Shown here one piece after another: positions 4,439 to 28,840 of a DNA stretch of 31,244 nucleotides. Under the pieces are notes generated by a model that saw nothing but the letters and a program-made list of their open reading frames with translations, was not told the DNA's origin and made no database searches. The stretch comes from a virus (lineage: Duplodnaviria; Heunggongvirae; Uroviricota; Caudoviricetes). The position numbers were made by a program, and so were the translations under genes. Each line of letters begins with the position of its first letter. Position 1 is the stretch's first letter. The stretch lies in the IMG/VR virus record IMGVR_UViG_2585428013_000006; one strand, written 5' to 3'.

Positions 4439-7372
4439 ATGGCAGACCGCAATTTAAATATCAGGGTGGCATTCAGCGCCCTGAATAATATGTCCCGCCC
4501 TGTCAACGCGGCGCGCCAGAGTGCCGCCGCGTTGGCATCTCAAATCAATCAGACCAAAACCAGCATTAAAGGGCTTGAGCGTCAGGCAACCAGCTTTGAC
4601 CGCCTCACCGCAGCCAATAAAAAAACCACCGAACAACTGGCCCAGGCGAAAGAACAGGCCCGGCAAATGGCGGCGGCTTATGGCCCGTTACGCCAGCGTA
4701 GCGCCGAACAGGTTGCCGCTCTCAATCAGCAACGTGCAGCCATTCGCCAGTTAACCCAGCAGCAGAAAGGCGAGCAGACGCAGCTTAACCAGTTGCGCGC
4801 CAGCTTCTACAGCGAAGGCATTGCGATCAGCAGTGCCAGCCGGGCGACGGAACAGATCAACCAGCGCACCGCGCAATACAATCGCCAGCTTGCCGAACAG
4901 CAGCGACGGCTTGACGCTGTTAACCAGGCGCAGGCCCGTTACAGCCGCGCCAAAGAAACCGGCGAAAAGATGATGAGCGGGGGAATGAAAACCGCCGCAG
5001 TAGGGGCGGCAACCCTCGCACCTGTCGCCGCTGCGGTGAAATCCTACAGCAGCCTTGAAGACGCGATGAAGGGCGTAGCCAAACAGGTAAACGGCTTGCG
5101 TGACGACAGCGGCAACCGCACCCCGCAATATGAAGAAATGCAGCGGGCGATCATGGATGCCAGCGAAAAGCTGCCAATGGCTAACGGTGCTGTTGACTAT
5201 GCCGCCCTGGTCGAAGGCGGCGCGCGTATGGGCGTTGCAAACAGCGATGATCCGTGGGAAAAACAAAAAGCCGATCTGCTGGCTTTCGCCAGCATGGCGG
5301 CAAAAGCTTCGGTAGCCTTTGAACTGCCCGCCGATCAGCTTTCTGAAAGCCTGGGTAAAATTGCCGGGCTGTATAAAATCCCTACCCAGAATATTGAACA
5401 GTTGGGCGACGCCATAAACTACCTGGACGATAACGCGAAGTCGAAAGGCTCCGATATTATCGACGTGCTCCAGCGCGTTGGCGGGCTTGCCAGCCAACTG
5501 GATTACAAGCAAGCCGCCGCGCTGGGTTCCACCTTTCTGACGCTTGGATCACCTGCCGAAGTTGCCGCCAGCGCAACCAATGCAATGGTGCGCGAACTAT
5601 CGATTGCCACAGTACAAAGCGATAAATTTTTGGGTGCGCTGGATGAAATCGGCGTCAATGCTGAAAAAGTCCAGAAAAGCATGTCAGTGGACGCGATGGG
5701 CACGATTATTTCAGTGCTCGAAGCCTCTAAAAAACTTGCACCAGATAAGCAGGTAGCCAACCTTACCCAGATTTTCGGTAAAGAGTTCGGGGATGATGCG
5801 CAGAAACTTGCCAACAACCTGCCAGAACTGCGCCGCCAGATAGAACTGACGCAGGGCGCAGCCGCTAAAGGTTCCATGAACCGGGAATCTGATATTAATA
5901 AAGCTTCCCTTTCCGCTCAGTGGCAATTGACCAAAACCGGCGCGGTTAACGCATTCAGTTCAGCAGGGGAAACGCTCCGCGAACCGCTGATGGATATCAT
6001 GCTTACCGTCAGTAAGGTGATTGGCAGCGTCCGCCGCTGGGTTGAGGCAAACCCTGCGCTGGTTGGCTCAATCATGAAAGTCACCGCAGCCATAGGCGCG
6101 TTGCTGGTTGTCGTGGGTGGTCTGATGCTGTCTATCGGCGCAGTGCTGGGCCCGATGGCGCTTGTTCGCCTCAGCTTCACCACGCTGGCCGGGGAAGGAG
6201 GAATAGCACGGCTGACTGGCGGAGTAATGCGCCTGGGTGGTGCGTTCCAGTGGCTTGCTGGCTCGCCTATGCAGGCATTATTAAGCGCCGGTCGCATGGT
6301 ATTCGGCCCGCTTATCACGCTACTGGCTGGCATTTCTGCGCCCGTATGGGGGCTGATTGCGCTCTTTGCGGCAGCAGCAGTGGCCGTCATTAAATTCTGG
6401 GAACCAATACAGGCATTTTTCACTGGTTTCTTTAACGGTATCATGACGGGCTTGCAACCTGTATTTGATGCTTTCAACGCTGTTTTCGCTCCATTAGCCC
6501 CAATCTTTGACGCGATAGGCTCCGCTATTAGCGGCGTTTGGGATTGGTTTACAAAATTGCTTGAACCGATCAAATTTTCCAGCGATGCGTTAGAAACTTG
6601 CACTACTGTTGGCGAAACATTTGGGAGGGTTCTGGGTACTGCAATAAGCGGTTTGCTTTGGCCGCTACAAAAATTGATGGAGGGTGTCGGCTGGGTACTG
6701 GAGAAACTTGATCTAATTCCTGCTGGGCTTGATGCAGCAAACGCCAAAGCAAATAGCCTTAAAAAAGATCCCGTTGTCTGGGAGTGGGATCCGCAACAAA
6801 AGAAAATGGTTAAAAAGGATTGGAACTGGTCGCCAGATAAACCAAACCAGCCTAAACCGCCAAAACCGCCAATAACACCTAAGCCAGTTGGTATCCCAGA
6901 CCTTATGGGATCGCCGAACTTAACCCCGAAGATGAGCAAGAGTCTGGATAAAATCGCAGACAACACGGGAAAAATGGCAGCAAAAGACGGGCCCGGCGAA
7001 ATCGTCTTCAAGAATAAGCAGCCTTATATCCCGATCCGGGGCGGATATTCGGAACCGCTTAAGCAGGCGCAGCGCCAGCTACCATCCCTTACGGATTGGG
7101 TGACGCAGCAGGCCGGATCTCTGATCGCTTCCGTTACGCCGTGGCAGGTTGAGAAGCCCGCCGCACGGGTGCCCGTTTCGGCGTCGCCGTCTGCGGCCTC
7201 CGTCGCTGCGCTGATGCCCGCGCCGGGTGGCGATGTATATAACCTTAGCTTCGACTTTAGCGGCCAGAAACTGGATGAAGAAACCATTATCAGGCGCGTG
7301 CGCGAAGAACTTGCGTTAGCGAAGCAGCAGGCCGACCGGCGCAAGCGCTCCCAACTGATCGATCACGTCTAA
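4439..7372 (+). CDS. T: Tail tape measure protein T
   Basis: 977 aa; coiled-coil Q/A-rich N-terminus, hydrophobic Gly/Ala-rich central region; located after E/E'. Confidence 0.9.
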   Translation: MADRNLNIRVAFSALNNMSRPVNAARQSAAALASQINQTKTSIKGLERQATSFDRLTAANKKTTEQLAQAKEQARQMAAAYGPLRQRSAEQVAALNQQRAAIRQLTQQQKGEQTQLNQLRASFYSEGIAISSASRATEQINQRTAQYNRQLAEQQRRLDAVNQAQARYSRAKETGEKMMSGGMKTAAVGAATLAPVAAAVKSYSSLEDAMKGVAKQVNGLRDDSGNRTPQYEEMQRAIMDASEKLPMANGAVDYAALVEGGARMGVANSDDPWEKQKADLLAFASMAAKASVAFELPADQLSESLGKIAGLYKIPTQNIEQLGDAINYLDDNAKSKGSDIIDVLQRVGGLASQLDYKQAAALGSTFLTLGSPAEVAASATNAMVRELSIATVQSDKFLGALDEIGVNAEKVQKSMSVDAMGTIISVLEASKKLAPDKQVANLTQIFGKEFGDDAQKLANNLPELRRQIELTQGAAAKGSMNRESDINKASLSAQWQLTKTGAVNAFSSAGETLREPLMDIMLTVSKVIGSVRRWVEANPALVGSIMKVTAAIGALLVVVGGLMLSIGAVLGPMALVRLSFTTLAGEGGIARLTGGVMRLGGAFQWLAGSPMQALLSAGRMVFGPLITLLAGISAPVWGLIALFAAAAVAVIKFWEPIQAFFTGFFNGIMTGLQPVFDAFNAVFAPLAPIFDAIGSAISGVWDWFTKLLEPIKFSSDALETCTTVGETFGRVLGTAISGLLWPLQKLMEGVGWVLEKLDLIPAGLDAANAKANSLKKDPVVWEWDPQQKKMVKKDWNWSPDKPNQPKPPKPPITPKPVGIPDLMGSPNLTPKMSKSLDKIADNTGKMAAKDGPGEIVFKNKQPYIPIRGGYSEPLKQAQRQLPSLTDWVTQQAGSLIASVTPWQVEKPAARVPVSASPSAASVAALMPAPGGDVYNLSFDFSGQKLDEETIIRRVREELALAKQQADRRKRSQLIDHV

Positions 7373-7382
7373 GGGCAATATC

Positions 7383-7832
7383 ATGATGATGATTCTGGGG
7401 ATGTTCCCCTTTTCACTGCAAACCACGCCTTACCAGAGTGCGAATAAAACCAACTCCTGGCGGCACGTCAAAAACGATCGCGTGGGGAAATCCCCGCGCT
7501 ATCAGTTCATCGGCGCAGATGAAGAACCTTTCGTACTTAGCGGCACGCTGTACCCCGAAATAAGTGGCGGTGATGTGTCGCTTGTCATGCTGGAAACTAT
7601 GGCCTTTTCCGGGCGACCGTGGCCCCTGATAGAAGGTACGGGCAGGATCTACGGCATGTATGTGATTGAGCAGATCACGCAAAACCGGACGGAGTTTTTT
7701 AAGGACGGGAAGGCAAAGAAAATTGATTTTACGCTGAACCTGAAACGGGTAAGCGAGGACATACGGGAAAAGCTGGCCGAAACTACCACCGACGATCTCT
7801 TCTCTCTGGTGAAAACCAACCTTTCGATATAA
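7383..7832 (+). CDS. U: Tail protein U
   Basis: 149 aa immediately after T; gpU-like size and position. Confidence 0.8.
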   Translation: MMMILGMFPFSLQTTPYQSANKTNSWRHVKNDRVGKSPRYQFIGADEEPFVLSGTLYPEISGGDVSLVMLETMAFSGRPWPLIEGTGRIYGMYVIEQITQNRTEFFKDGKAKKIDFTLNLKRVSEDIREKLAETTTDDLFSLVKTNLSI

Positions 7833-20229: not shown

Positions 20230-21279
20230 TTGAGCAGCAAAAAGAAATTCAGGGCGCCAACTGCTGCGCCAGCCAGCACGGCCAGCAACGCAGCCACCCC
20301 GCTGGAAAGCGTGGAATCTTTCAGCTTTGGCGACCCGATCGCAGTCAACGATCGAGCGTCTCTTATGGAGTGCCTCGAATGCCATAACAATGGCCGCTGG
20401 TATGAACCACCGATCAGCCCTTACGGGCTGGCGCGCATGTTCGACGTTGCCGCCTATCACCAGTCACCGCTGATATTTAAACGCAATGTTATCGCCAGTT
20501 GCTACATACCACACCCGCTATTGACCCGGCAGGAGTTCACCGCCTGGGTGCAGGATTATTTAATTTTCGGTAACTGTTACATGGAATGCCGCCGCAACCG
20601 ACTCGGCCAGCCGATTGAACTGCGGCACAGCCAGGCGAAATATACGCGGCGCGGCATAGACCCGGCTCAATTCTGGTTTGTTCCGCGCTACGTTGACGAT
20701 CACGCGTTCGAACCGGGCAGCGTCTGCCAGATCAAGAACCCCAGCCCGCACCAGGAGATCTACGGCGCGCCGGAATATCTGGCCGCGCTACAAAGCGCCA
20801 TGCTGAACGGTGAAGCAACGGTGTTCCGCCGCAACTACTACATTAACGGAAGTCATGCGGGTGTGATCGTCTACCTCACCGACCCGGTAGCGAATAATAA
20901 CGATGTGGAAAAGCTTAAGAAGTCGCTGAAAGATGCACGTGGCAACGGTGCTTTTAAAAACCTGTTTGTCTACGCGGCGGGCGGGAAAAAAGACGGCCTG
21001 CAAATTATGCCGTTCAGCCAGGTGGCGGCGAAGGATGAGTTTACCGGCATCAAAGACGCCACCCGAGACGACCTGTTAGCCGCGCACCGCGTACCGCCCG
21101 TTCTGATGGGGGTAATGCCGAATAACTCCGGTGGCTTCGGCGACGTAGAGAAAGCGGCGAAGGTTTTTTCCATCAACGAACTGGCCCCGATACAAGAAAG
21201 CCTGAAAGAGTTAAACGACTGGCTGGGGATCGACGTGGTGCGCTTCAACCCTTACGCACTGTTGCAGGCAGCAATCTGA
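20230..21279 (+). CDS. Q: Portal protein Q
   Basis: 349 aa; starts at TTG directly after the P stop, with GGAGGAG 8 nt upstream; portal-family resemblance. Confidence 0.85.
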   Translation: MSSKKKFRAPTAAPASTASNAATPLESVESFSFGDPIAVNDRASLMECLECHNNGRWYEPPISPYGLARMFDVAAYHQSPLIFKRNVIASCYIPHPLLTRQEFTAWVQDYLIFGNCYMECRRNRLGQPIELRHSQAKYTRRGIDPAQFWFVPRYVDDHAFEPGSVCQIKNPSPHQEIYGAPEYLAALQSAMLNGEATVFRRNYYINGSHAGVIVYLTDPVANNNDVEKLKKSLKDARGNGAFKNLFVYAAGGKKDGLQIMPFSQVAAKDEFTGIKDATRDDLLAAHRVPPVLMGVMPNNSGGFGDVEKAAKVFSINELAPIQESLKELNDWLGIDVVRFNPYALLQAAI

Positions 21280-21489: not shown

Positions 21490-21508
21490 CTCATTCCCCC
21501 GCCTCGCC
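21490..21508. other. Candidate cos (cohesive end) site
   Basis: Minus strand reads GGCGAGGCGGGGG, matching my recollection of the start of the P2 19-nt cohesive end; lies between Q and the accessory locus as in P2. Exact ends uncertain. Confidence 0.4.
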
Positions 21509-21649
21509 CGCACGCAGAAACCCCGCTTTTTTGTGCAAATGTGCAGACCACCGGAAGGCCCGCCCCGTCTGACCTGTGGTGATAATACGAATGCCGAAAT
21601 ATTTGTGCATTTACGTGCAATTTTTTGCAGTGTTTTTGGCGCAATAAAA

Positions 21650-21677
21650 AAGGGCTTTGTTAGCCCTTAATTTTTTA
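21650..21677. terminator. Bidirectional hairpin terminator ending the accessory operon
   Basis: AAGGGCT-TTGTT-AGCCCTT flanked by A-run and T-run. Confidence 0.65.
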
Positions 21678-22313
21678 CCTTCCCCACTCCCGATCAGGAA
21701 GTCGATCTTTGAAGGCAAGGTAATCGTAAAACTCACGAGTATGGGAAAAGATACATTCGCACATTGCAGCGCCAGCGTTTGAAAGAGCCAATTTCAACAT
21801 GCCGTCAGGTTTAGGATTGCTCACCAAATTTTCATAAACTTGAGCCTGATCTGTACCGTGGACACATAACAAAAGTGACGACTCAAAGGTAACAACTGCA
21901 TCCAGTAAACGCTGATGAATCACGGAAAGGGCCGGTTGGTTTGCAACAATTGCAGTCAAACAGCGGCGATCACCCGTCATGAAAATGGCTTCTGGGTTCT
22001 CTATGCACGAGGCAAGCAATAGCTGTTCGCCTACATCAATTCCGGGCACACTCCCCAAAAGCTCAATAAGCTGTGAGTCCTGAACTTCCGGGATATCCTG
22101 TACAGATTCAATGAAGGCTCCCACCTGCTCGTAAACAACCTGGCTACCACACTTCCTGATTGCTTTATCAGGATTTTTCGGCAGAAGCTGAAAACGAGCA
22201 GCAGGGTTAATGAAGATCTGTTCGGGGGGTTGATTAAAAACCACTGGCAGTTGTGATAACAGATTGCACTGGGCCAGCTTCAAAATGACATCATTGTCAG
22301 AAAGAACAATCAC
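21675..22313 (-). CDS. Hypothetical protein, possible PIN-like nuclease fold; second gene of the accessory pair
   Basis: 212 aa; GTG start after tandem TAA TAA; N-terminal IVLSDNDVI and later IFMTGDRR resemble PIN acidic motifs (weak, by eye); AT-richer than the phage core. Confidence 0.45.
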   Translation of the reverse strand: MIVLSDNDVILKLAQCNLLSQLPVVFNQPPEQIFINPAARFQLLPKNPDKAIRKCGSQVVYEQVGAFIESVQDIPEVQDSQLIELLGSVPGIDVGEQLLLASCIENPEAIFMTGDRRCLTAIVANQPALSVIHQRLLDAVVTFESSLLLCVHGTDQAQVYENLVSNPKPDGMLKLALSNAGAAMCECIFSHTREFYDYLAFKDRLPDREWGR

Positions 22314-22316
22314 TTA

Positions 22317-23315
22317 TTATTCCCCGATTAGATTTTCTAAAACCTTAAGATCATCTTCGTGGATATTTTCTAAATCCATCCCGCTTTTCATCATGGCCCT
22401 CACAAAATCCTGATCTGAGTCTTCACCAGCACAGAGTGCTTTAACAGCGTTAACAGCAGCACCCCAGCAGTTCTGCGCGAAACCATAATTTAAAGCGATG
22501 TGAGTCGGGTCAATGTGATTATCACTTCCAAACTTTTGAGCCGCGCGAGCCAAGCCAGGCCCATTCAACCTGCCAGCGGTAGGAACGATACGTAAAGACT
22601 TCTGCCCCGAAATGACCTGGAAAGCGAATTCGTTGGCTTCTTTCTCTACGTTGTCCGTCGAAGCATTCTCAATTTTTGCATCAATATGGCACTGCCCGTT
22701 TTCTGCGTTCAGATGCCCTCTGGCGATATGGCCTAACTCATGCGCGAGATCAAACAGCATATAGCCATATTTCTGAGGCTGAGTAAGAACAATCACCGGG
22801 CGCCCGTGACTCATTAGTGCCAGCCCGGCCATTTTTTTGGCAGCTTGAGGGAAGCATTTTAGATAAACAACAGGAATGCCAATCGAATGACAGTATGTTA
22901 CCAGGCTATCTAACGATACCCATGATTCCTTAGTAAGAATCTGGGTTCTTATCGCCAAAGGATCAAGCACTGCACTGGAATCGTAAGGGACTTTGAAATT
23001 AGACGCGACAATACCGGCCGCAGTATAGGCAACAGCAGTAGCGATATCTAAATCGTTCTCGGCTACATTTTGGCGATGTTTATATTTATGGTTTCCACCA
23101 AAATTAAAGCATACCCCTTCGCTACCATCTTTCAGGCTATCCGGGAGAATGCTAAACATACGCGCAAGGTGCAGGCACGCATACTGGCGCCCTGATGGGG
23201 TGTCAGCAAGCTTCTCATCCCACCAGTCAGGCAACAACCTGCGGATGTAAGAGAGATTAAACCCGGCCCGGCCGAATTTAGAATATATCTGACTCATCTG
23301 ATTATGGTTCGTCAT
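22317..23315 (-). CDS. ImmA/IrrE-family (M78-like) zinc metallopeptidase domain protein with unknown N-terminal region
   Basis: 332 aa; HELGH followed by EKEANEFA, the arrangement typical of ImmA/IrrE peptidases; AGGAGG SD; occupies the P2 old/tin position. Confidence 0.7.
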   Translation of the reverse strand: MTNHNQMSQIYSKFGRAGFNLSYIRRLLPDWWDEKLADTPSGRQYACLHLARMFSILPDSLKDGSEGVCFNFGGNHKYKHRQNVAENDLDIATAVAYTAAGIVASNFKVPYDSSAVLDPLAIRTQILTKESWVSLDSLVTYCHSIGIPVVYLKCFPQAAKKMAGLALMSHGRPVIVLTQPQKYGYMLFDLAHELGHIARGHLNAENGQCHIDAKIENASTDNVEKEANEFAFQVISGQKSLRIVPTAGRLNGPGLARAAQKFGSDNHIDPTHIALNYGFAQNCWGAAVNAVKALCAGEDSDQDFVRAMMKSGMDLENIHEDDLKVLENLIGE

Positions 23316-23473
23316 AAGAGCCTCCTAACTGCGTGTGTAAGCGAAATGCCATTTGTTATTAGCTTAGTTATGACACAAAAGCGCGCACACTATAAGCAGA
23401 AAACGGCGAAAGTCATAACTATTTCGATTGTGTGGAAAATGGGTAATTGCTTCTTAGAGCGGCTTATATCGGC

Positions 23474-25828
23474 TTAGTTCCGCGAAAATGCTGCTTTCAT
23501 CCTGTTCACAAGATCACTTGTTTTTTGCTTCGCCGCCATCACCTGCGACGGTAGCTTATCCAGCCCGGACGCTGCGCGGTTGCGCGATACCAGCCGCCCG
23601 TCCTGCACGGTCATAACAAGATCGCCGCACGCCACTGACGCACCGGCCATCATCGATCTGACCATTCCAGCGCTGGCATCAATCCCACGTAGCGCCAGCA
23701 GTTCACTGATCTGCTGCTCTTTGACTGATAGCCCTGCTCCCTCTTCCCGTTCCGGTGGCCGCGTTTTCCGCTTGGCGCGTACATCGTCACTTAATCGCTG
23801 CGCCAGTTCCCGTTTTTCTTGCCGTGAAAGAGCATCAAAATTCACCGTCTCGCCCACTTCGTGATCGGCATGTTCAAGACCGTCTGCACTTGTCGCGGGA
23901 TCCCGCGTACAGTTATTGACAGAACTCCGAGGGGCGGCGTTGCCGCCTGAAAAACCAACGTCAACGGCCACACCGTCAACGCTCTGGCGCTTCGGCACGA
24001 TTTTGTATTGAGTGGTGCGGGTGAAGATCAAAGAGTCATTGCCCGTAATCGGGCAGTAAATACCGGTGATTCGCTGGACGTTATCGCCGTAGGCGTTGCC
24101 GTTCTCAGTGGTTTCATAATTCAGACGAATGCGCAGCTTATCGCGCTCAACCAATGGGCCACCCTGGGCTAATACGTAGTTATCCCATTCGCCACCGTTA
24201 GCGGCCTGCCGGGCGGTTTCCAGTTCAGGGTGTAGCACCAGTTCGCGATCGCCCAGGCGGCGAAGTTCGCGATATACCGTGACCGGCGCACCGCCGATCT
24301 GCTGAAACTGACGAATAGCCCAGCGCGATGCCCACGCGCTAACGCGGAGTGACATTTCTTTCAGGTCTTCCCCGGTTTCGTCGTCCTTCTCACCATCCAG
24401 CGCGAAGCCGTCGATATTCTTCGAAATGTATTTCGCTATGTAGCCGGTTGCGCTGCCGTGGGCATCGTCGATCGGCACAACCTGAAAGCGGTTTTCCTGC
24501 GCTCCCGGTTCGTTGCCGTCTTCTTTCAGGGCATATTTACGGAAGATTTCGCGCGCCTGCTTGACGCATTCCGGGCGCATAAAAAGAAGTAAATGCCAGT
24601 GTGGCGTTGCATCGTGGTGCGGTTCGACCACGCGGAAACCAAAGACGCGGATCCCTTTTCTCTTCCACGCTGCGCGGGTTCTCGCCCAGACTTTGCAAAG
24701 ATATTGCTGCGTCTCGCGCGGCGACGCGCCACAGTATTTATTATTGCGGCGCCCGTTATGCTGCATGGAGTGGTAACGGGAAGGTGCTGTTAGCGTGTAG
24801 AAGTCACCGGCCAGCCCTTCCAGCTTCGCCAAATCTTCAAATCCGCGCATTCTCGTCATGAGTTCGCGGCGACGGTTGGCCGGATTGGCAACACTACCGG
24901 CGACTTTATCGATCAGTGAAATGCGTTCGCCCGTGTCCTGGTCTTCCAGTTCCATAGCCTTAAGGTATTCACGGTTAGCCTTTTTCTGGGCCAGCCATTC
25001 CGTGAGGCACGGGGCGCTACTGTATGGGGAAGATTTTTTCTGGACGTATCCCGCTGCGATCATCAAATGCTCACGCCACCTGGCATGGATACGGCGCAGG
25101 CGGTTTAACCACCACTGCGGTGACTCAAGGCGAAGAACCGCGCGTAACGCGTCCTCCGCTTCCAGTTCTTCATTGCAATACGCCGTCCAGCCGGGGATCG
25201 GCGTTTTCAGATGCACCGCCAGCGACGCAATACGGCCATAGCCCGAAAGCGCCGCGAACTCAGGATCTCCGGTGCGTGCCAACTGGTGATCGGACTCGCG
25301 TATAAACTCGCTCGTAAAGATATCGGCAAGCGTATAAGCCAGTCTTTTTAACTCTTTCTTCCCTGCCCAGAGCATACGGAAAAGCTGATCGCGGATTGGT
25401 AGCAGAATGCCGGGCATCACAGTGTCAGGCTGGTAAACACTGTTCACGCTATCAATACGCGTTAATACGTGGCGCTCAAAGGTATTAACCAGCCAGTGAT
25501 CTGCCGCTTTACGGTCTTTCGCGTCCAGTGCATCCAGCTTCGCGGCAAAGTGGCGGCGGATATACTGCGGAAGGGAAGCCAGACGGCGACGCAGCAGCTT
25601 GCTGCGCTCCGGCTTTTCGTCCTCCGCTACCAGTTCACTGAACGCAATATGCTTGCGGGTGCCGTCCGGCGTGAGATAGTCGAAACCATCCAGCCCCGGC
25701 GCTACATCAACGCCAATCGGCTGGTATGGTTTGTTCCCGCCATAAGCGTAAGGGATAGCATTATCAGTGCTACCCGGATACGATGGAGGTGGAGAAGGGG
25801 CGCGACGGCCACGGGTTGCCGTGGTCAT
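23474..25828 (-). CDS. A: Replication initiation endonuclease A (rolling-circle)
   Basis: 784 aa; P2 gpA-like size and position; ATGA overlap with the upstream methylase gene. Confidence 0.9.
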   Translation of the reverse strand: MTTATRGRRAPSPPPSYPGSTDNAIPYAYGGNKPYQPIGVDVAPGLDGFDYLTPDGTRKHIAFSELVAEDEKPERSKLLRRRLASLPQYIRRHFAAKLDALDAKDRKAADHWLVNTFERHVLTRIDSVNSVYQPDTVMPGILLPIRDQLFRMLWAGKKELKRLAYTLADIFTSEFIRESDHQLARTGDPEFAALSGYGRIASLAVHLKTPIPGWTAYCNEELEAEDALRAVLRLESPQWWLNRLRRIHARWREHLMIAAGYVQKKSSPYSSAPCLTEWLAQKKANREYLKAMELEDQDTGERISLIDKVAGSVANPANRRRELMTRMRGFEDLAKLEGLAGDFYTLTAPSRYHSMQHNGRRNNKYCGASPRETQQYLCKVWARTRAAWKRKGIRVFGFRVVEPHHDATPHWHLLLFMRPECVKQAREIFRKYALKEDGNEPGAQENRFQVVPIDDAHGSATGYIAKYISKNIDGFALDGEKDDETGEDLKEMSLRVSAWASRWAIRQFQQIGGAPVTVYRELRRLGDRELVLHPELETARQAANGGEWDNYVLAQGGPLVERDKLRIRLNYETTENGNAYGDNVQRITGIYCPITGNDSLIFTRTTQYKIVPKRQSVDGVAVDVGFSGGNAAPRSSVNNCTRDPATSADGLEHADHEVGETVNFDALSRQEKRELAQRLSDDVRAKRKTRPPEREEGAGLSVKEQQISELLALRGIDASAGMVRSMMAGASVACGDLVMTVQDGRLVSRNRAASGLDKLPSQVMAAKQKTSDLVNRMKAAFSRN

Positions 25829-26739
25829 TGCGCGATCTCCATGTAGGCTTTTAAGAAAGTAGCGGCTGCATAGATATTTACGGCGTTTCCGCTGGCGCGT
25901 AGTTTTCCCACTCTGGAGGGAACCCCATCAACCAGAGGCTTAAGGCCGGGTTTAACTGGCCTCCACTTTCCATCCCGGCAGAAAAGCCAGTCAGCAGATC
26001 CCCAGAATCCGTTAACCGGGCCGGGCCTGCTATCTGCGCTGTCACATCCAGCGTATCCGTTGACAGCTTCCCGTGCCGCATCCTTCCCCCCTGATACCCG
26101 CCCTTTCCATCCCTCGCCGCAGGGGTGGGCCAGCCCGCAAGACAAGCAAAGTCCTGTAAGTTCGACTGCCGACCAGCCAGCTTCCTGGCGATCACCTTCT
26201 CGGCATCCTGATAAGCGTTCTTCGTATTGCTCGCGGTTGGAGTCGGCCAGCCAGTAAGTACGCTCCCGGATGTGCGGCGCACCGACGCCCGCAGACGGAA
26301 ACGCCGACGCCCCGAAGGCATAGCCCAAACTTTCCATGTCAGTTTGTACAAGGTCGATCCAGACTTCTGCATCTTTGCTTGAAGACTGTTCGCCAAATAT
26401 AACGACAGGGCGTTGCTGGCCTGCAAGCCAATGAACGGCGGGCCATAGGTGCCGCTCATCATCAAATTGTTTTCCTTCGCCTGCCTGGCTGAAAGGTTGG
26501 CATGGGCAACTTGCTGTCCATACTGGGCGGTCGTCCGGCCATCCTGCAACGCGCAAAGCACGGGGCCAGCCTCCAAAACCTGCAAACAGGTGGATTTGAG
26601 AGAATCCTTTAATGTCATTTGGGGTTACATCCTCAACGGAACGGGTATCAACAACGCCGGAAGCGATAAGCCCGGCATCAATGAGGTTGCGCAGGTATTG
26701 CGCGGCAAAGGGATCGATTTCGTTGTAGTAGGCGGTCAC
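25825..26739 (-). CDS. DNA (cytosine-5) methyltransferase, orphan
   Basis: Motif I FAGFGG, motif IV PCQPFS, RER, C-terminal GNAV; GTG start with GGAGGGG SD; no restriction partner seen. Confidence 0.8.
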
Positions 26740-26930
26740 TGCTGCCCCTCCGCTTTGCGGTATTTCGTGATAAGCGGATCTACAATTCCGTCGAGAGTGG
26801 CCTTTATCGCCCGCGCCTCTTCCTGCCCATTCATCACGCCCACGTGCGTGGCTAACGCCAACGCTATCAACTTGATTTCGTTCAGTGCGTGCAGCGCGCC
26901 TTGATTAAATTCATGTGAGTTAGAAGGCAT
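26736..26930 (-). CDS. Hypothetical small protein
   Basis: 64 aa from ATG 26930 (GGAG RBS), packed between the Dam and C5-methylase genes. Confidence 0.4.
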   Translation of the reverse strand: MPSNSHEFNQGALHALNEIKLIALALATHVGVMNGQEEARAIKATLDGIVDPLITKYRKAEGQQ

Positions 26931-27873
26931 CGGCGTGATCTCCAAAGTCGGCGGAATAGCCAGCGCATGGGCCGCAGTCTGGGCAATAGCCACCACCATG
27001 ACGCCCGCAGCAGTCGCAGACAGGCAGCACGCCGATCACTTCTTTGGCCTTCTGGCGGTTTTCTTTGTCGGTGCTGACGGAACGTTGCACGCTGATTTCG
27101 TGCATCTTGAAGGGCTGATAAATCGCGCGGGTGGCTTCGGTGTCGCTGTTGGAAATGACGACCTTCACGCCATGCTTACGGTTAACTTCCAGCAGTGCCT
27201 GGACTAACTGGCGGTGGTTGTCTTCCGTGAATGGTTCGGTGTGGTATTGGGTAAAATCGGCTGTTTTGCTTTCAGGCAGGTAAGGCGGATCGCAGTAAAC
27301 GAGAACATCGCCACCCGTGACGACCTGTAGAGAACGCTGGAACGGCGCGCAAAGAAATATTGCCTTTGTATCGTTGGCCTTTTCGGCAAAGAGGCGGATT
27401 TCATTTTCAGGAAAGTAGACGCTCTTATACTTGCCAAACGGCACGTTAAAGCCGCTCTTCCGGCTGTATCGGCATAAGCCGTTATAACCGTGACGATTCA
27501 GATACAGGAATTGAGCAGCGCGCATAATGCACGCCATTTCAGCGCCATAACGCAACCCACCGCTTTTTACCGTACCCACCTGCTTATTGAACGCGGCGCG
27601 GACTTCGTTGTACCCCTGCGGGCTGTTCTTGCTGTTGAACAGTTCGCGGGCCGCATCGATCACTAAGTCCGGGTAACGGGTGACTTCCCGATACAGGTTA
27701 ATAAGATCCGGGTTGATATCAGCCAGCACATAGCGGCGGTACTCAGTCGCCAGAAATACCGATGCGCCACCTACGAACGGTTCGATCAGGCAGTCGGCTG
27801 TAGGAAGGTGCGGCAGCAGGTCAGGAAGGACACGGGTTTTACCCCCTGCCCATTTGATGAACGGGCGGATCAT
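26920..27873 (-). CDS. dam: Dam-family DNA adenine (N6) methyltransferase with Cys-rich C-terminal extension
   Basis: KWAGGK, EPF.GG.SVFL, DPPY; colinear with E. coli Dam; extra C-terminal tail CDCCGRHGGGYCPDCGPC. Confidence 0.9.
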   Translation of the reverse strand: MIRPFIKWAGGKTRVLPDLLPHLPTADCLIEPFVGGASVFLATEYRRYVLADINPDLINLYREVTRYPDLVIDAARELFNSKNSPQGYNEVRAAFNKQVGTVKSGGLRYGAEMACIMRAAQFLYLNRHGYNGLCRYSRKSGFNVPFGKYKSVYFPENEIRLFAEKANDTKAIFLCAPFQRSLQVVTGGDVLVYCDPPYLPESKTADFTQYHTEPFTEDNHRQLVQALLEVNRKHGVKVVISNSDTEATRAIYQPFKMHEISVQRSVSTDKENRQKAKEVIGVLPVCDCCGRHGGGYCPDCGPCAGYSADFGDHADAF

Positions 27874-28129: not shown

Positions 28130-28312
28130 TTACTGGTGATCCGCTGATTGGTTAGCTGACTTGAGGGCAGGCCAGACAAGGAGAAGAAGAGCGCCAACGA
28201 AGAAGGCGTCGCCAATCACCGAAAGCAGGTAGCTGGTGAAATCCACTGCTACGACCATGAAGGCCAACAGCAGGGCCAGCGCCGGACGTAGTGAATCCAG
28301 CACGCGCAGCAT
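28130..28312 (-). CDS. Small membrane protein with two predicted helices, co-translated with the TerB-like gene
   Basis: 60 aa, mostly hydrophobic; ATGA overlap with the upstream stop; hairpin at 28105-28126 downstream. Confidence 0.45.
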   Translation of the reverse strand: MLRVLDSLRPALALLLAFMVVAVDFTSYLLSVIGDAFFVGALLLLVWPALKSANQSADHQ

Positions 28313-28746
28313 CAGAGATAATCCTCAACACGCAGCCCCAGACGGCGCCCGACCTCTTCCAGCACCTTCTGTTCTTCTGGTTCGATCTGGCCGTCCGCTT
28401 CGGCGATAGTCAGCATGTTGACGAAGACTTCTTCGGCTTCTTTCGGATCGTTTTTGATGTCGTCTATTTCGCGCAAAATGTTCATGCGGCCAACGCGGAA
28501 GCCAGCTTCAAGCTGTTCCGTATAGCGGTTGATGGTGGATGTAATTTCATTGCCGAAATGCGCAAGGCGCGGGTTAGAGCGGATAAGCTGATCCAGCTTG
28601 CTGGTTTCTTCTTTTTCGATCTCGCCATCGGCGGCAGATACCAAAAGACAACCGCCGACAATAGCTTCCATAAGATCGCGATTTTCCACTTTCTTAAGTT
28701 CAACTTTTGCCGCTGCTACTTTTTTTCCAAACAGTTTATTAAACAT
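28312..28746 (-). CDS. TerB-family (tellurite-resistance TerB-like) domain protein
   Basis: 144 aa from ATG 28746 (AAGGA RBS); two acidic repeats, SAADGEIEKEE and AEADGQIEPEEQ, typical of TerB domains. Confidence 0.65.
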   Translation of the reverse strand: MFNKLFGKKVAAAKVELKKVENRDLMEAIVGGCLLVSAADGEIEKEETSKLDQLIRSNPRLAHFGNEITSTINRYTEQLEAGFRVGRMNILREIDDIKNDPKEAEEVFVNMLTIAEADGQIEPEEQKVLEEVGRRLGLRVEDYL

Positions 28747-28840
28747 GCTATTTATCCTTTTTAGGATGAGTGAAAGCGCCATCACTTAATTAAGTGACGA
28801 CAGTGAAGACTGTTTTTTAATTAATATTTAACTGGCGTTG

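Follow-up and report, generated by a model that had tools for sequence, protein, structure and literature searches.

A two-gene cassette of an M78 peptidase and a PIN-like protein as a candidate conflict module in the gpA–cos–gpQ hotspot of a P2-like prophage

Introduction

What is the role of the pair of genes that a P2-like prophage carries in the slot where P2 itself has old and tin? We address this question for a stretch of viral DNA of 31,244 nucleotides (nt), IMG/VR record IMGVR_UViG_2585428013_000006, which we call the window. In this P2-like prophage, two neighbouring minus-strand genes, gene 1 and gene 2, form a cassette that has replication gene A on one side and the cos/portal region on the other. 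The initial annotation of the window had identified the old/tin slot as a hotspot, and the literature bears this out: the gpA–gpQ interval, the site of P2 old and tin, is a hotspot, for which E. coli shows 1,650 gene arrangements, and a reservoir of anti-phage systems (Rousset et al., PMC9122126). The cassette lies in just this interval, between replication gene A and portal gene Q. Taking the comparative evidence together, we consider it somewhat probable that the cassette is a two-gene toxin–antitoxin-like or abortive-infection conflict module of the RosmerTA type, which the prophage carries in the gpA–cos–gpQ hotspot as lysogenic-conversion cargo.

Results

Both open reading frames of the cassette were confirmed where the initial annotation had placed them, on the minus strand, and the numbers of their homologues mark them as real genes.

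22317..23315, minus strand: gene 1, 332 amino acids, ATG start
21675..22313, minus strand: gene 2, 212 amino acids, GTG start

The junction of the two genes, read directly, is GGGGAATAATAAGTG, in which TAA, TAA and GTG follow one another as first described; a GGGGA Shine–Dalgarno-like purine-rich run stands ahead of the GTG.

The two genes are found together wherever we could examine them. A scan of 100,044 species genomes yielded 35 informative loci, and in all 35 a family-specific M78 gene lay immediately upstream of the gene 2 homologue on the same strand, with a 4-nt overlap in 15 loci and a gap of at most 37 nt in the others. These loci span the Gamma- and Betaproteobacteria, Cyanobacteria, Chloroflexi, Planctomycetes and Acidobacteria, that is, five or more phyla. 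The pair was also present in 13 of 13 loci retrieved by exact-protein look-ups and in 27 of 27 viral (IMG/VR) contigs. A survey of the same locus in other P2-like prophages, which had been suggested earlier, is provided by these viral contigs, 24 of which carry the pair in the P2 gpA–gpQ hotspot. Divergence runs in parallel in the two proteins (41/45%, 39/41% and 32–36/28–33% identity), and no third gene was conserved with the pair in the contexts examined. The partnership of gene 1 and gene 2 is obligate.

Gene 2 is predicted to encode a PIN-like nuclease whose family is absent from Pfam. Its motifs IVLSDND (amino acids 2–8) and TGDRR (amino acids 113–117), noted at the outset as weak PIN-like acidic motifs, are now predicted to be real catalytic motifs. 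Among 42 relatives of 23–45% identity, D6, D8, G95-E96, G114-D115 and E144 are invariant, and D93, K116 and D170 are nearly so. The AlphaFold model, with a predicted local distance difference test (pLDDT) score of 93.2 and a predicted template modelling (pTM) score of 0.89, is one compact domain with a PIN alpha/beta fold of the VapC type. In this model the acidic residues stand after strand 1, at a helix start, after strand 3 and after strand 4, which is the canonical PIN pattern, and the putative catalytic residues are D6, D8, E96, D115 and E144, plus D170. The model also contains two additional elements.

Gene 2, about amino acids 16–93: helical insertion
Gene 2, C-terminus: helical extension

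We assign gene 2 to the PIN superfamily on fold and motifs, because no sequence model matches it. The protein had no match in Pfam, NCBIfam or PADLOC (PADLOC at E ≤ 1), its sole database-family match was phrog_15597, function unknown, and its relatives (29 + 42) gave a single Pfam PIN match, at E 0.1. Assignment to DUF4411 or another Pfam PIN family was considered and rejected, as the query had no such match and 70 relatives were without a DUF4411 match. The family is nevertheless large: an exhaustive profile search at E ≤ 1e-3 returned 1,565 cluster representatives (50% identity), with a length of 200–220 amino acids in nearly all matches listed. Since the fold is closest to VapC, the target of the predicted nuclease is most likely RNA.

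Gene 1 proved to be a peptidase of the M78 (ImmA/IrrE) type, as its HELGH (amino acids 192–196) and EKEANEFA (amino acids 224–231) motifs had indicated. The Pfam model Peptidase_M78 (ImmA/IrrE, PF06114/COG2856) matched amino acids 146–233 with 31.8 bits against a gathering score of 22, and it matched 39 of 39 aligned relatives. In these 39 relatives, down to 32% identity, H192, E193, H196, H201, D212, E224, A227 and N228 (E-x-x-A-N) are invariant. Because the zinc-site residues are invariant, the gene 1 product should be active as a catalytically competent protease. Its AlphaFold model (pLDDT 87.8, pTM 0.88) has one disordered loop, at amino acids 207–218, and the closest solved folds are those of CapP and IrrE, with which only about 124 residues, the peptidase domain, align. 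The protein can be divided as follows.

Gene 1, about amino acids 6–62: N-terminal domain, helical and family-specific, with invariant P29 and W31 (LPxWWD)
Gene 1, linker: conserved basic K(F/Y)K(H/K)R motif and a long helix, amino acids 86–105
Gene 1, about amino acids 119–240: M78 domain, with H192, E193, H196, H201, D212 and E224
Gene 1, amino acids 252–330: C-terminal domain, helical

The N-terminal region of about 140 amino acids that had been described as unassigned remains so: the first 118 residues matched no Pfam family and, with an N-terminal profile at E ≤ 10, no PDB sequence. A profile search with the N-terminal domain for other architectures returned 4 fragments only, and full-length homologues of gene 1 number in the hundreds. 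At the other end, no GAF domain was found, the C-terminal 80 or so residues being all helical in the model, and C209, a cysteine in the flexible loop, is not conserved among the 39 relatives. PADLOC models matched at the level of the domain only (PD-Lambda-2_B, E 8.8e-10; capP, E 1.4e-7; RmrA, E about 1e-5). The profile searches proposed in the initial annotation thus gave Peptidase_M78 for gene 1, with PADLOC responding to this domain alone, and no PIN or DUF match for gene 2.

We rejected the idea that the N-terminal domain of gene 1 is the helix-turn-helix (HTH) of the usual Xre-peptidase fusions, as a 489-amino-acid relative from Calothrix (contig L054) has a true HTH_3 domain ahead of the region homologous to gene 1 amino acids 50–199. 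This relative belongs to a cluster at L054 16768–20333, in which a DUF6932 gene, the HTH_3 plus M78 gene, a DUF4186 gene and a gene for a radical-SAM-like protein are co-oriented. The cluster lies 6.5 kb from a canonical pair of M78 and PIN-like genes on one contig, so that the same peptidase lineage occurs there with a true HTH and with different partners. Among PDB sequences, the one that the gene 1 family profile matched best was chain A of PDB 9vzy, a 393-amino-acid 'HTH cro/C1-type domain-containing protein' (E 6e-4, in the M78 part); it may be an RmrA-like structure, and a literature search found no paper describing it.

The cassette behaves as exchangeable cargo that moves between P2-like backbones as a unit. 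In a series of P2-like contigs (L055–L066), cassettes at least 96% identical stand beside portal genes of 52–99% identity, some of only 52–58%; in L076 the portal is 99% identical, yet the cassette allele is 55% identical. A natural chimera, at L067 3996–5636 (IMG/VR 2548876535_000006), combines a gene 2 product that is 87% identical to that of the window with a gene 1 product of only 55% identity over the full length, with the break at the gene junction, and a contig of Klebsiella pneumoniae (P0004 and P0128) shows the same combination. The cassette is rare, being present in 13 of 5,426 complete E. coli genomes, and sequenced phages in INPHARED gave no DNA or protein match to it. Relatives were found in only 3 of 72,556 plasmid records, at least one of which is a P2-like phage genome. 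The Enterobacter soli 'plasmid pENTAS02' (L018; NC_015969.1, 32,574 bp) is a complete circular P2-like phage genome, from ogr to integrase, with the cassette at 21722–23362.

The cassette had been described as an AT-richer operon with its own promoter and terminator, and each element of this description found support. Its GC content is 0.44–0.48, versus 0.54–0.61 on either side, and we located the following signals.

23389..23416, minus strand: promoter-like site with ATGACT (-35), a 16-nt spacer and TATAGT (-10), about 73 nt upstream of the gene 1 ATG, from a consensus scan
23321..23326, minus strand: AGGAGG, Shine–Dalgarno sequence of gene 1, read from the sequence
21641..21668, minus strand: intrinsic terminator with a 7-bp stem (4 G-C pairs), a 5-nt loop and a T-run
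23365–23374 and 23412–23421: arms of a perfect 10-nt inverted repeat, TAGTTATGAC / GTCATAACTA, separated by 37 nt, from a repeat search

The terminator reads AAGGGCT-AACAA-AGCCCTT then TTTTTTATT; its position is given by 21668..21650, 7 nt past the gene 2 stop codon. The promoter scan alone performed at chance level (4 sites found versus 2.4 expected). Conservation across cassettes adds to it: the window, L015, L016 and L017 have in common TATAGT and the block next to it, TTTT(T)GTGTCATAACTA, and cassettes of Dickeya, Erwinia and a metagenome keep TATAGT and the block after it (TTTTTGTGTCATAACTA). We take the site as the predicted promoter region of the cassette itself because TATAGT and the next block are conserved although the encoded proteins are only 55–76% identical. 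The segment GGAGGCTC around the gene 1 Shine–Dalgarno sequence is invariant in four aligned cassettes. Having its own promoter-like site and terminator, the cassette is probably expressed on its own in the lysogen.

The arms of the inverted repeat bracket the promoter-like site, with a chance expectation that we roughly estimate at about 0.02 per 200 nt, and the repeat may be an operator. This interpretation is weakened by the comparison with other cassettes, in which the downstream arm falls within the conserved block but the upstream arm is absent, being specific to the window; the counterpart in L015 is ATGCCATAA-N14-TTATGGCAT, downstream of the -10 element. There was no LexA box near the cassette, and the window-wide count of LexA boxes was at chance level.

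The surroundings of the cassette are those of a P2-like prophage.

20230..21279, plus strand: portal protein gene, flanking the cassette
Near 21491–21510: cos-like core, GGGCGAGGCGGGGGAA, between the portal gene and the cassette
23474..25828, minus strand: gene for the gpA replication protein (Pfam Phage_GPA, E 2e-105)

In its minus-strand reading, the cos-like core at 21491–21510 is GGGCGAGGCGGGGGAATGAGCGCGCGC, a near-match to the P2/P4 cos-proximal GGGCGAGGCGGGGAAAGCACTGCGCGC (Rousset et al. constructs), and it is because of this resemblance that we describe the cassette as cos-adjacent. A locus in E. coli MS 57-2 is 99.4% identical, and RefSeq gives there the order portal, hypothetical protein, ImmA/IrrE metallo-endopeptidase and replication endonuclease, within a P2-like prophage. 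Upstream of gene A in the window are three further minus-strand genes: a C-5 cytosine methylase-like gene with a partial Pfam match (25825–26739), a Dam-type N6-adenine methylase gene (26920–27873) and a TerB-domain gene (28312–28785). They are additional accessory genes, probably related to anti-restriction or conflict. In the P2-like hotspot of L016, the cassette is separated from the portal gene by six extra small genes (DUF6966, DUF4926, DUF8093 and unannotated ones; 4982–7431), which means that the hotspot has room for several stacked cargo modules.

Outside P2-like phages, the pair keeps varied company. One locus is beside BREX (bacteriophage exclusion) PglY and AAA_15/21 genes; one context holds N6_N4 methylase, T5orf172/MUG113 and Cap4-nuclease/AAA_22 genes; and another has AAA_15/21, a DUF3368 PIN toxin–antitoxin pair, a methylase and DUF4365. 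Tn7-like TniB/TniQ genes occur near the pair in 2 loci, helicases are also among the neighbours, and of two further contexts one has integrase and terminase-like genes and the other plain housekeeping surroundings. In four loci of Methylococcales (L023 10661–14736, L027 4108–8285, L028 3735–8521 and L032 10687–14891), which are perhaps not independent of one another, the pair is followed 10–18 nt downstream by co-oriented Type III restriction-modification genes, Mod (about 506 amino acids) and Res (about 887 amino acids); the pair and mod-res may form a single operon there. Judged qualitatively, the contexts are distributed as one would expect for a mobile conflict module. Two unrelated genomes (L008 1754–3170 and L010 5669–7062) each have a BpsA_C (PF01861) gene, about 280 amino acids long, that overlaps a gene of about 190 amino acids without a Pfam family. 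This second pair lies within 1–3 kb of the module in both and may be another cargo pair of such islands.

Discussion

From computed gene structure, domain and fold identity, conserved catalytic residues, strict pairing and genomic contexts, we infer a module whose toxicity, neutralisation, trigger, enzyme substrates and protective effect could take the following form. Gene 2 would be the effector, a metal-dependent PIN-like nuclease, and gene 1 its dedicated controller, an M78 zinc protease of the ImmA/IrrE/CapP lineage with N- and C-terminal domains of its own. Both enzymes look active, since the catalytic residues are invariant in both proteins. In the uninfected cell, the nuclease would be held silent by the product of the upstream, translationally coupled gene 1. 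A cue from infection would then switch the protease; it could be a phage protein or, in the manner of CapP and IrrE, single-stranded DNA (ssDNA) or damage to the DNA. Because ssDNA activates CapP and IrrE (PMC13228613), whose folds are the closest, ssDNA or DNA damage is a reasonable first guess. The nuclease might be freed by proteolysis of gene 1 itself or within the complex, proteolysis being proposed as the switching step because the zinc site of gene 1 is invariant, and the freed nuclease would arrest the cell and so block the superinfecting phage.

This account has precedents. RosmerTA consists of a Zn-peptidase antitoxin together with a toxin whose function is not known, and deletion of rmrA was unobtainable (10.1101/2022.05.11.491447). 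PIN-like toxins are linked with the ImmA antitoxin node of NetFlax, and validation exists for a phage RosmerTA (PMC10440598); HTH-DUF955-PIN-like systems were predicted by Matelska et al. (PMC5499597). Four accessions looked up in a truncated copy of NetFlax Dataset S1 gave no match. The defence and mobile contexts of the pair, which include the P2 hotspot, BREX, methylase/Cap4, Type III restriction-modification and Tn7-like genes, lend further support. The initial annotation had likewise suggested a protease-controlled toxin or abortive infection, a suggestion that fits the conserved pairing and the defence-island contexts and that, as to function, stays a reading of the architecture.

Several points weigh against a RosmerTA-like antitoxin and toxin. 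An Xre-type HTH in gene 1 is not detectable by sequence, with no HTH Pfam match in 39 members, so that the autoregulation and substrate logic of ImmA/ImmR is not simply transferable. Gene 2 matches neither RmrT nor any other PADLOC model, and the match of gene 1 to RmrA is confined to the peptidase domain (E about 1e-5). In PD-lambda-2, the toxic component is the peptidase-containing protein itself (PMC9519451), and the assignment of toxin and antitoxin could therefore be the reverse of ours. The L067 chimera argues against a tightly co-evolving, allele-specific interface between gene 1 and gene 2. An antitoxin that acts purely by binding needs no invariant protease site, and activation by cleavage fits just as well. 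Finally, Rousset et al. list the pair but did not clone it (PMC9122126).

These points lead to the main rival explanation, in which a signal-activated M78 protease cleaves an inactive gene 2 product, for instance at the helical insertion or the C-terminal extension, and thereby switches it on, gene 1 being sensor and activator. Such licensing of a zymogen accounts at least as well for the invariant protease site, which is what one expects if cleavage is essential, and for partner exchange, as the exchange of partners diverged to about 55% identity in L067 is easier for an enzyme and its substrate than for a tight inhibitor pair. In defence, moreover, it is an established logic that effectors encoded in the operon are activated by proteolysis (10.1101/2025.11.14.688446), and CapP and IrrE are signal-activated proteases. 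However, the proteases in the protease–effector modules reported to date are of the serine or cysteine type, not M78; gene 2 is modelled as compact and with confidence (pTM 0.89), with no obvious detachable inhibitory segment; the controller-first order and translational coupling are typical of antitoxin–toxin pairs; and RmrA, the nearest named analogue, acts as an antitoxin. We regard licensing by cleavage as a minority possibility to be taken seriously. A related proposal, which we hold to be unlikely, is that gene 1 senses infection like CapP/IrrE but is connected directly to an effector instead of a repressor, so that ssDNA or a phage factor would lead to cleavage of gene 1 itself or of the PIN-like protein and thereby license the nuclease. 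If it were true, proteolysis-gated activation of effectors would extend from serine and cysteine proteases to M78 metalloproteases, and it would define a widespread family of more than 1,500 sequence clusters in at least five phyla.

The remaining explanations give the cassette another purpose or the proteins other parts. The pair could be a selfish addiction module, a toxin–antitoxin pair that mainly stabilises its prophage or island and has no dedicated anti-phage role. It is a two-gene, overlapping and horizontally mobile unit in many unrelated contexts, housekeeping genes included, and PIN-like toxins are the commonest type II toxins (PMC5499597). Its location in the P2 hotspot, known for exclusion and defence genes, its repeated adjacency to restriction-modification, BREX and other defence genes, and the presence of a relative in just 3 of 72,556 plasmid records, at least one of them a P2-like phage genome, speak against this reading; we find pure addiction doubtful. 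Stabilising and anti-phage roles are not mutually exclusive. That gene 1 is instead a regulatory protease of the ImmA/IrrE/CapP kind, cleaving a repressor upon DNA damage to control prophage induction or a neighbouring defence operon with gene 2 as an accessory, seems to us improbable. The CapP and IrrE folds, the co-oriented Type III mod-res genes 10–18 nt downstream in the four Methylococcales loci and the perfect inverted repeat around the window promoter would suit this role. But no repressor or HTH gene is conserved beside the pair in any of about 75 loci, gene 1 is without the GAF domain of CapP/IrrE and its C209 is not conserved, the cassette ends at its own terminator in P2 hotspots, there is no LexA box nearby, and the invariant nuclease residues argue that gene 2 is the output of the module. 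Least probable, in our estimation, is a protease effector that cleaves an essential host protein upon a phage cue, as Lit cleaves EF-Tu, with gene 2 modulating or neutralising it. Several gene 1 relatives have precomputed matches to Peptidase_U49, the Lit family, and the Xre-peptidase protein of PD-lambda-2 is toxic alone (PMC9519451); yet the U49 matches are weak and overlap the shared HExxH region, nothing points to a host target, and the invariant PIN-type acidic set of gene 2 is hard to explain in a mere modulator.

How does the favoured conflict module compare with known systems? The initial annotation could not match the cassette to a named defence system. This no longer holds, as the class has been described (RosmerTA; Matelska et al. 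2017; the NetFlax ImmA node) and the pair itself appears in Table S5 of Rousset et al. 2022 among the P2 loci, as 'Peptidase_M78 + hypothetical', WP_000181463 + WP_062933619, outside the systems that were cloned (PMC9122126). WP_000181463 is the exact gene 1 protein. The 'Peptidase + TM' system that Rousset et al. tested (pFR104) was considered as a candidate for this cassette and rejected, being a different, 161-amino-acid peptidase with a membrane partner. Our literature search found no paper testing this family of M78 and PIN-like proteins.

RosmerTA (RmrT/RmrA; Millman et al. 2022; Ernits et al. 2023) shares with the cassette a two-gene make-up of an M78 protein of about 330–400 amino acids and a variable toxic partner, putative in our case, an occurrence on phages and in defence islands, an M78 domain about 140 amino acids from the N-terminus in RmrA and gene 1 (by weak PADLOC matches), and, for the NetFlax ImmA/Rosmer node, a reported pairing with PIN-like domains. 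It differs in that 11 RmrA models match gene 1 only at amino acids 134–241 (E 4e-6 to 3e-3), gene 2 has no match to an RmrT model and gene 1 has no Xre HTH detectable by sequence. Furthermore, where RosmerTA swaps its toxin, the peptidase here is inherited together with a partner from a single, fixed PIN-like family, and it always comes first. In the HTH-DUF955(M78)-PIN-like systems of Matelska et al. 2017 (DUF4411, COG2405, PIN_14, PIN_20 and PIN_26), too, a PIN-like gene lies directly downstream of the DUF955/M78 gene, and both those systems and ours are predictions; however, gene 2 and 70 relatives match neither DUF4411 nor any other Pfam PIN model, and our cassette has no recognisable HTH.

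CapP/CapH, IrrE/DdrO and ImmA/ImmR are likewise built on site-specific proteases, activated by ssDNA or DNA damage and tied to immunity and mobile elements. Their substrate, though, is a separate HTH repressor and their output transcriptional, whereas gene 1 has a nuclease partner and no conserved repressor gene; it also lacks the C-terminal GAF domain (ssDNA groove) of CapP and IrrE, and the cysteine switch of CapP is not conserved. PD-lambda-2 (Vassallo et al. 2022), whose PD-Lambda-2_B is the best PADLOC match of gene 1 (E 8.8e-10, peptidase domain), is a toxin–antitoxin-like abortive infection system with an ImmA/IrrE peptidase, but it has three genes (HigB-like A, Xre-peptidase B, and C), of which A and C are absent from the cassette, and it has no PIN component. 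VapBC resembles the cassette in the VapC-like fold and catalytic acidic residues of its effector and in the translational coupling to an upstream controller. VapB, however, is a small DNA-binding antitoxin, in contrast to a 332-amino-acid metalloprotease without a ribbon-helix-helix, AbrB or HTH match, and gene 2 is about 80 amino acids longer than VapC and matches no PIN family model. Several components of these systems, namely an RmrT match for RosmerTA, the A and C proteins for PD-lambda-2, repressor and GAF domain for CapP/CapH and VapB for VapBC, were absent from the cassette. Like P2 old and tin, the cassette occupies the slot between gene A and cos/Q, and it would be expected, as they are, to keep other phages out of the lysogen. 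The proteins are unrelated: Old is a nuclease of the ATPase-TOPRIM kind, and the targets of Tin are T-even phages.

Modules of the RosmerTA type are known defence systems, and for the question of how the zinc peptidase controls its toxin the pair would be a convenient model because it is short and has two recognisable active sites and no third component; it could also show whether CapP/IrrE-like ssDNA sensing is reused to fire an effector directly. If it does protect the lysogen, the P2 hotspot repertoire gains a validated system, and a PIN-like family without a Pfam entry, of about 1,565 clusters and always paired with one M78 lineage, gains a function. The class of module, a Zn-peptidase with a toxin and, as predicted, DUF955 with PIN, is already described; this family is a new member of it and a well-supported candidate rather than a surprising find.

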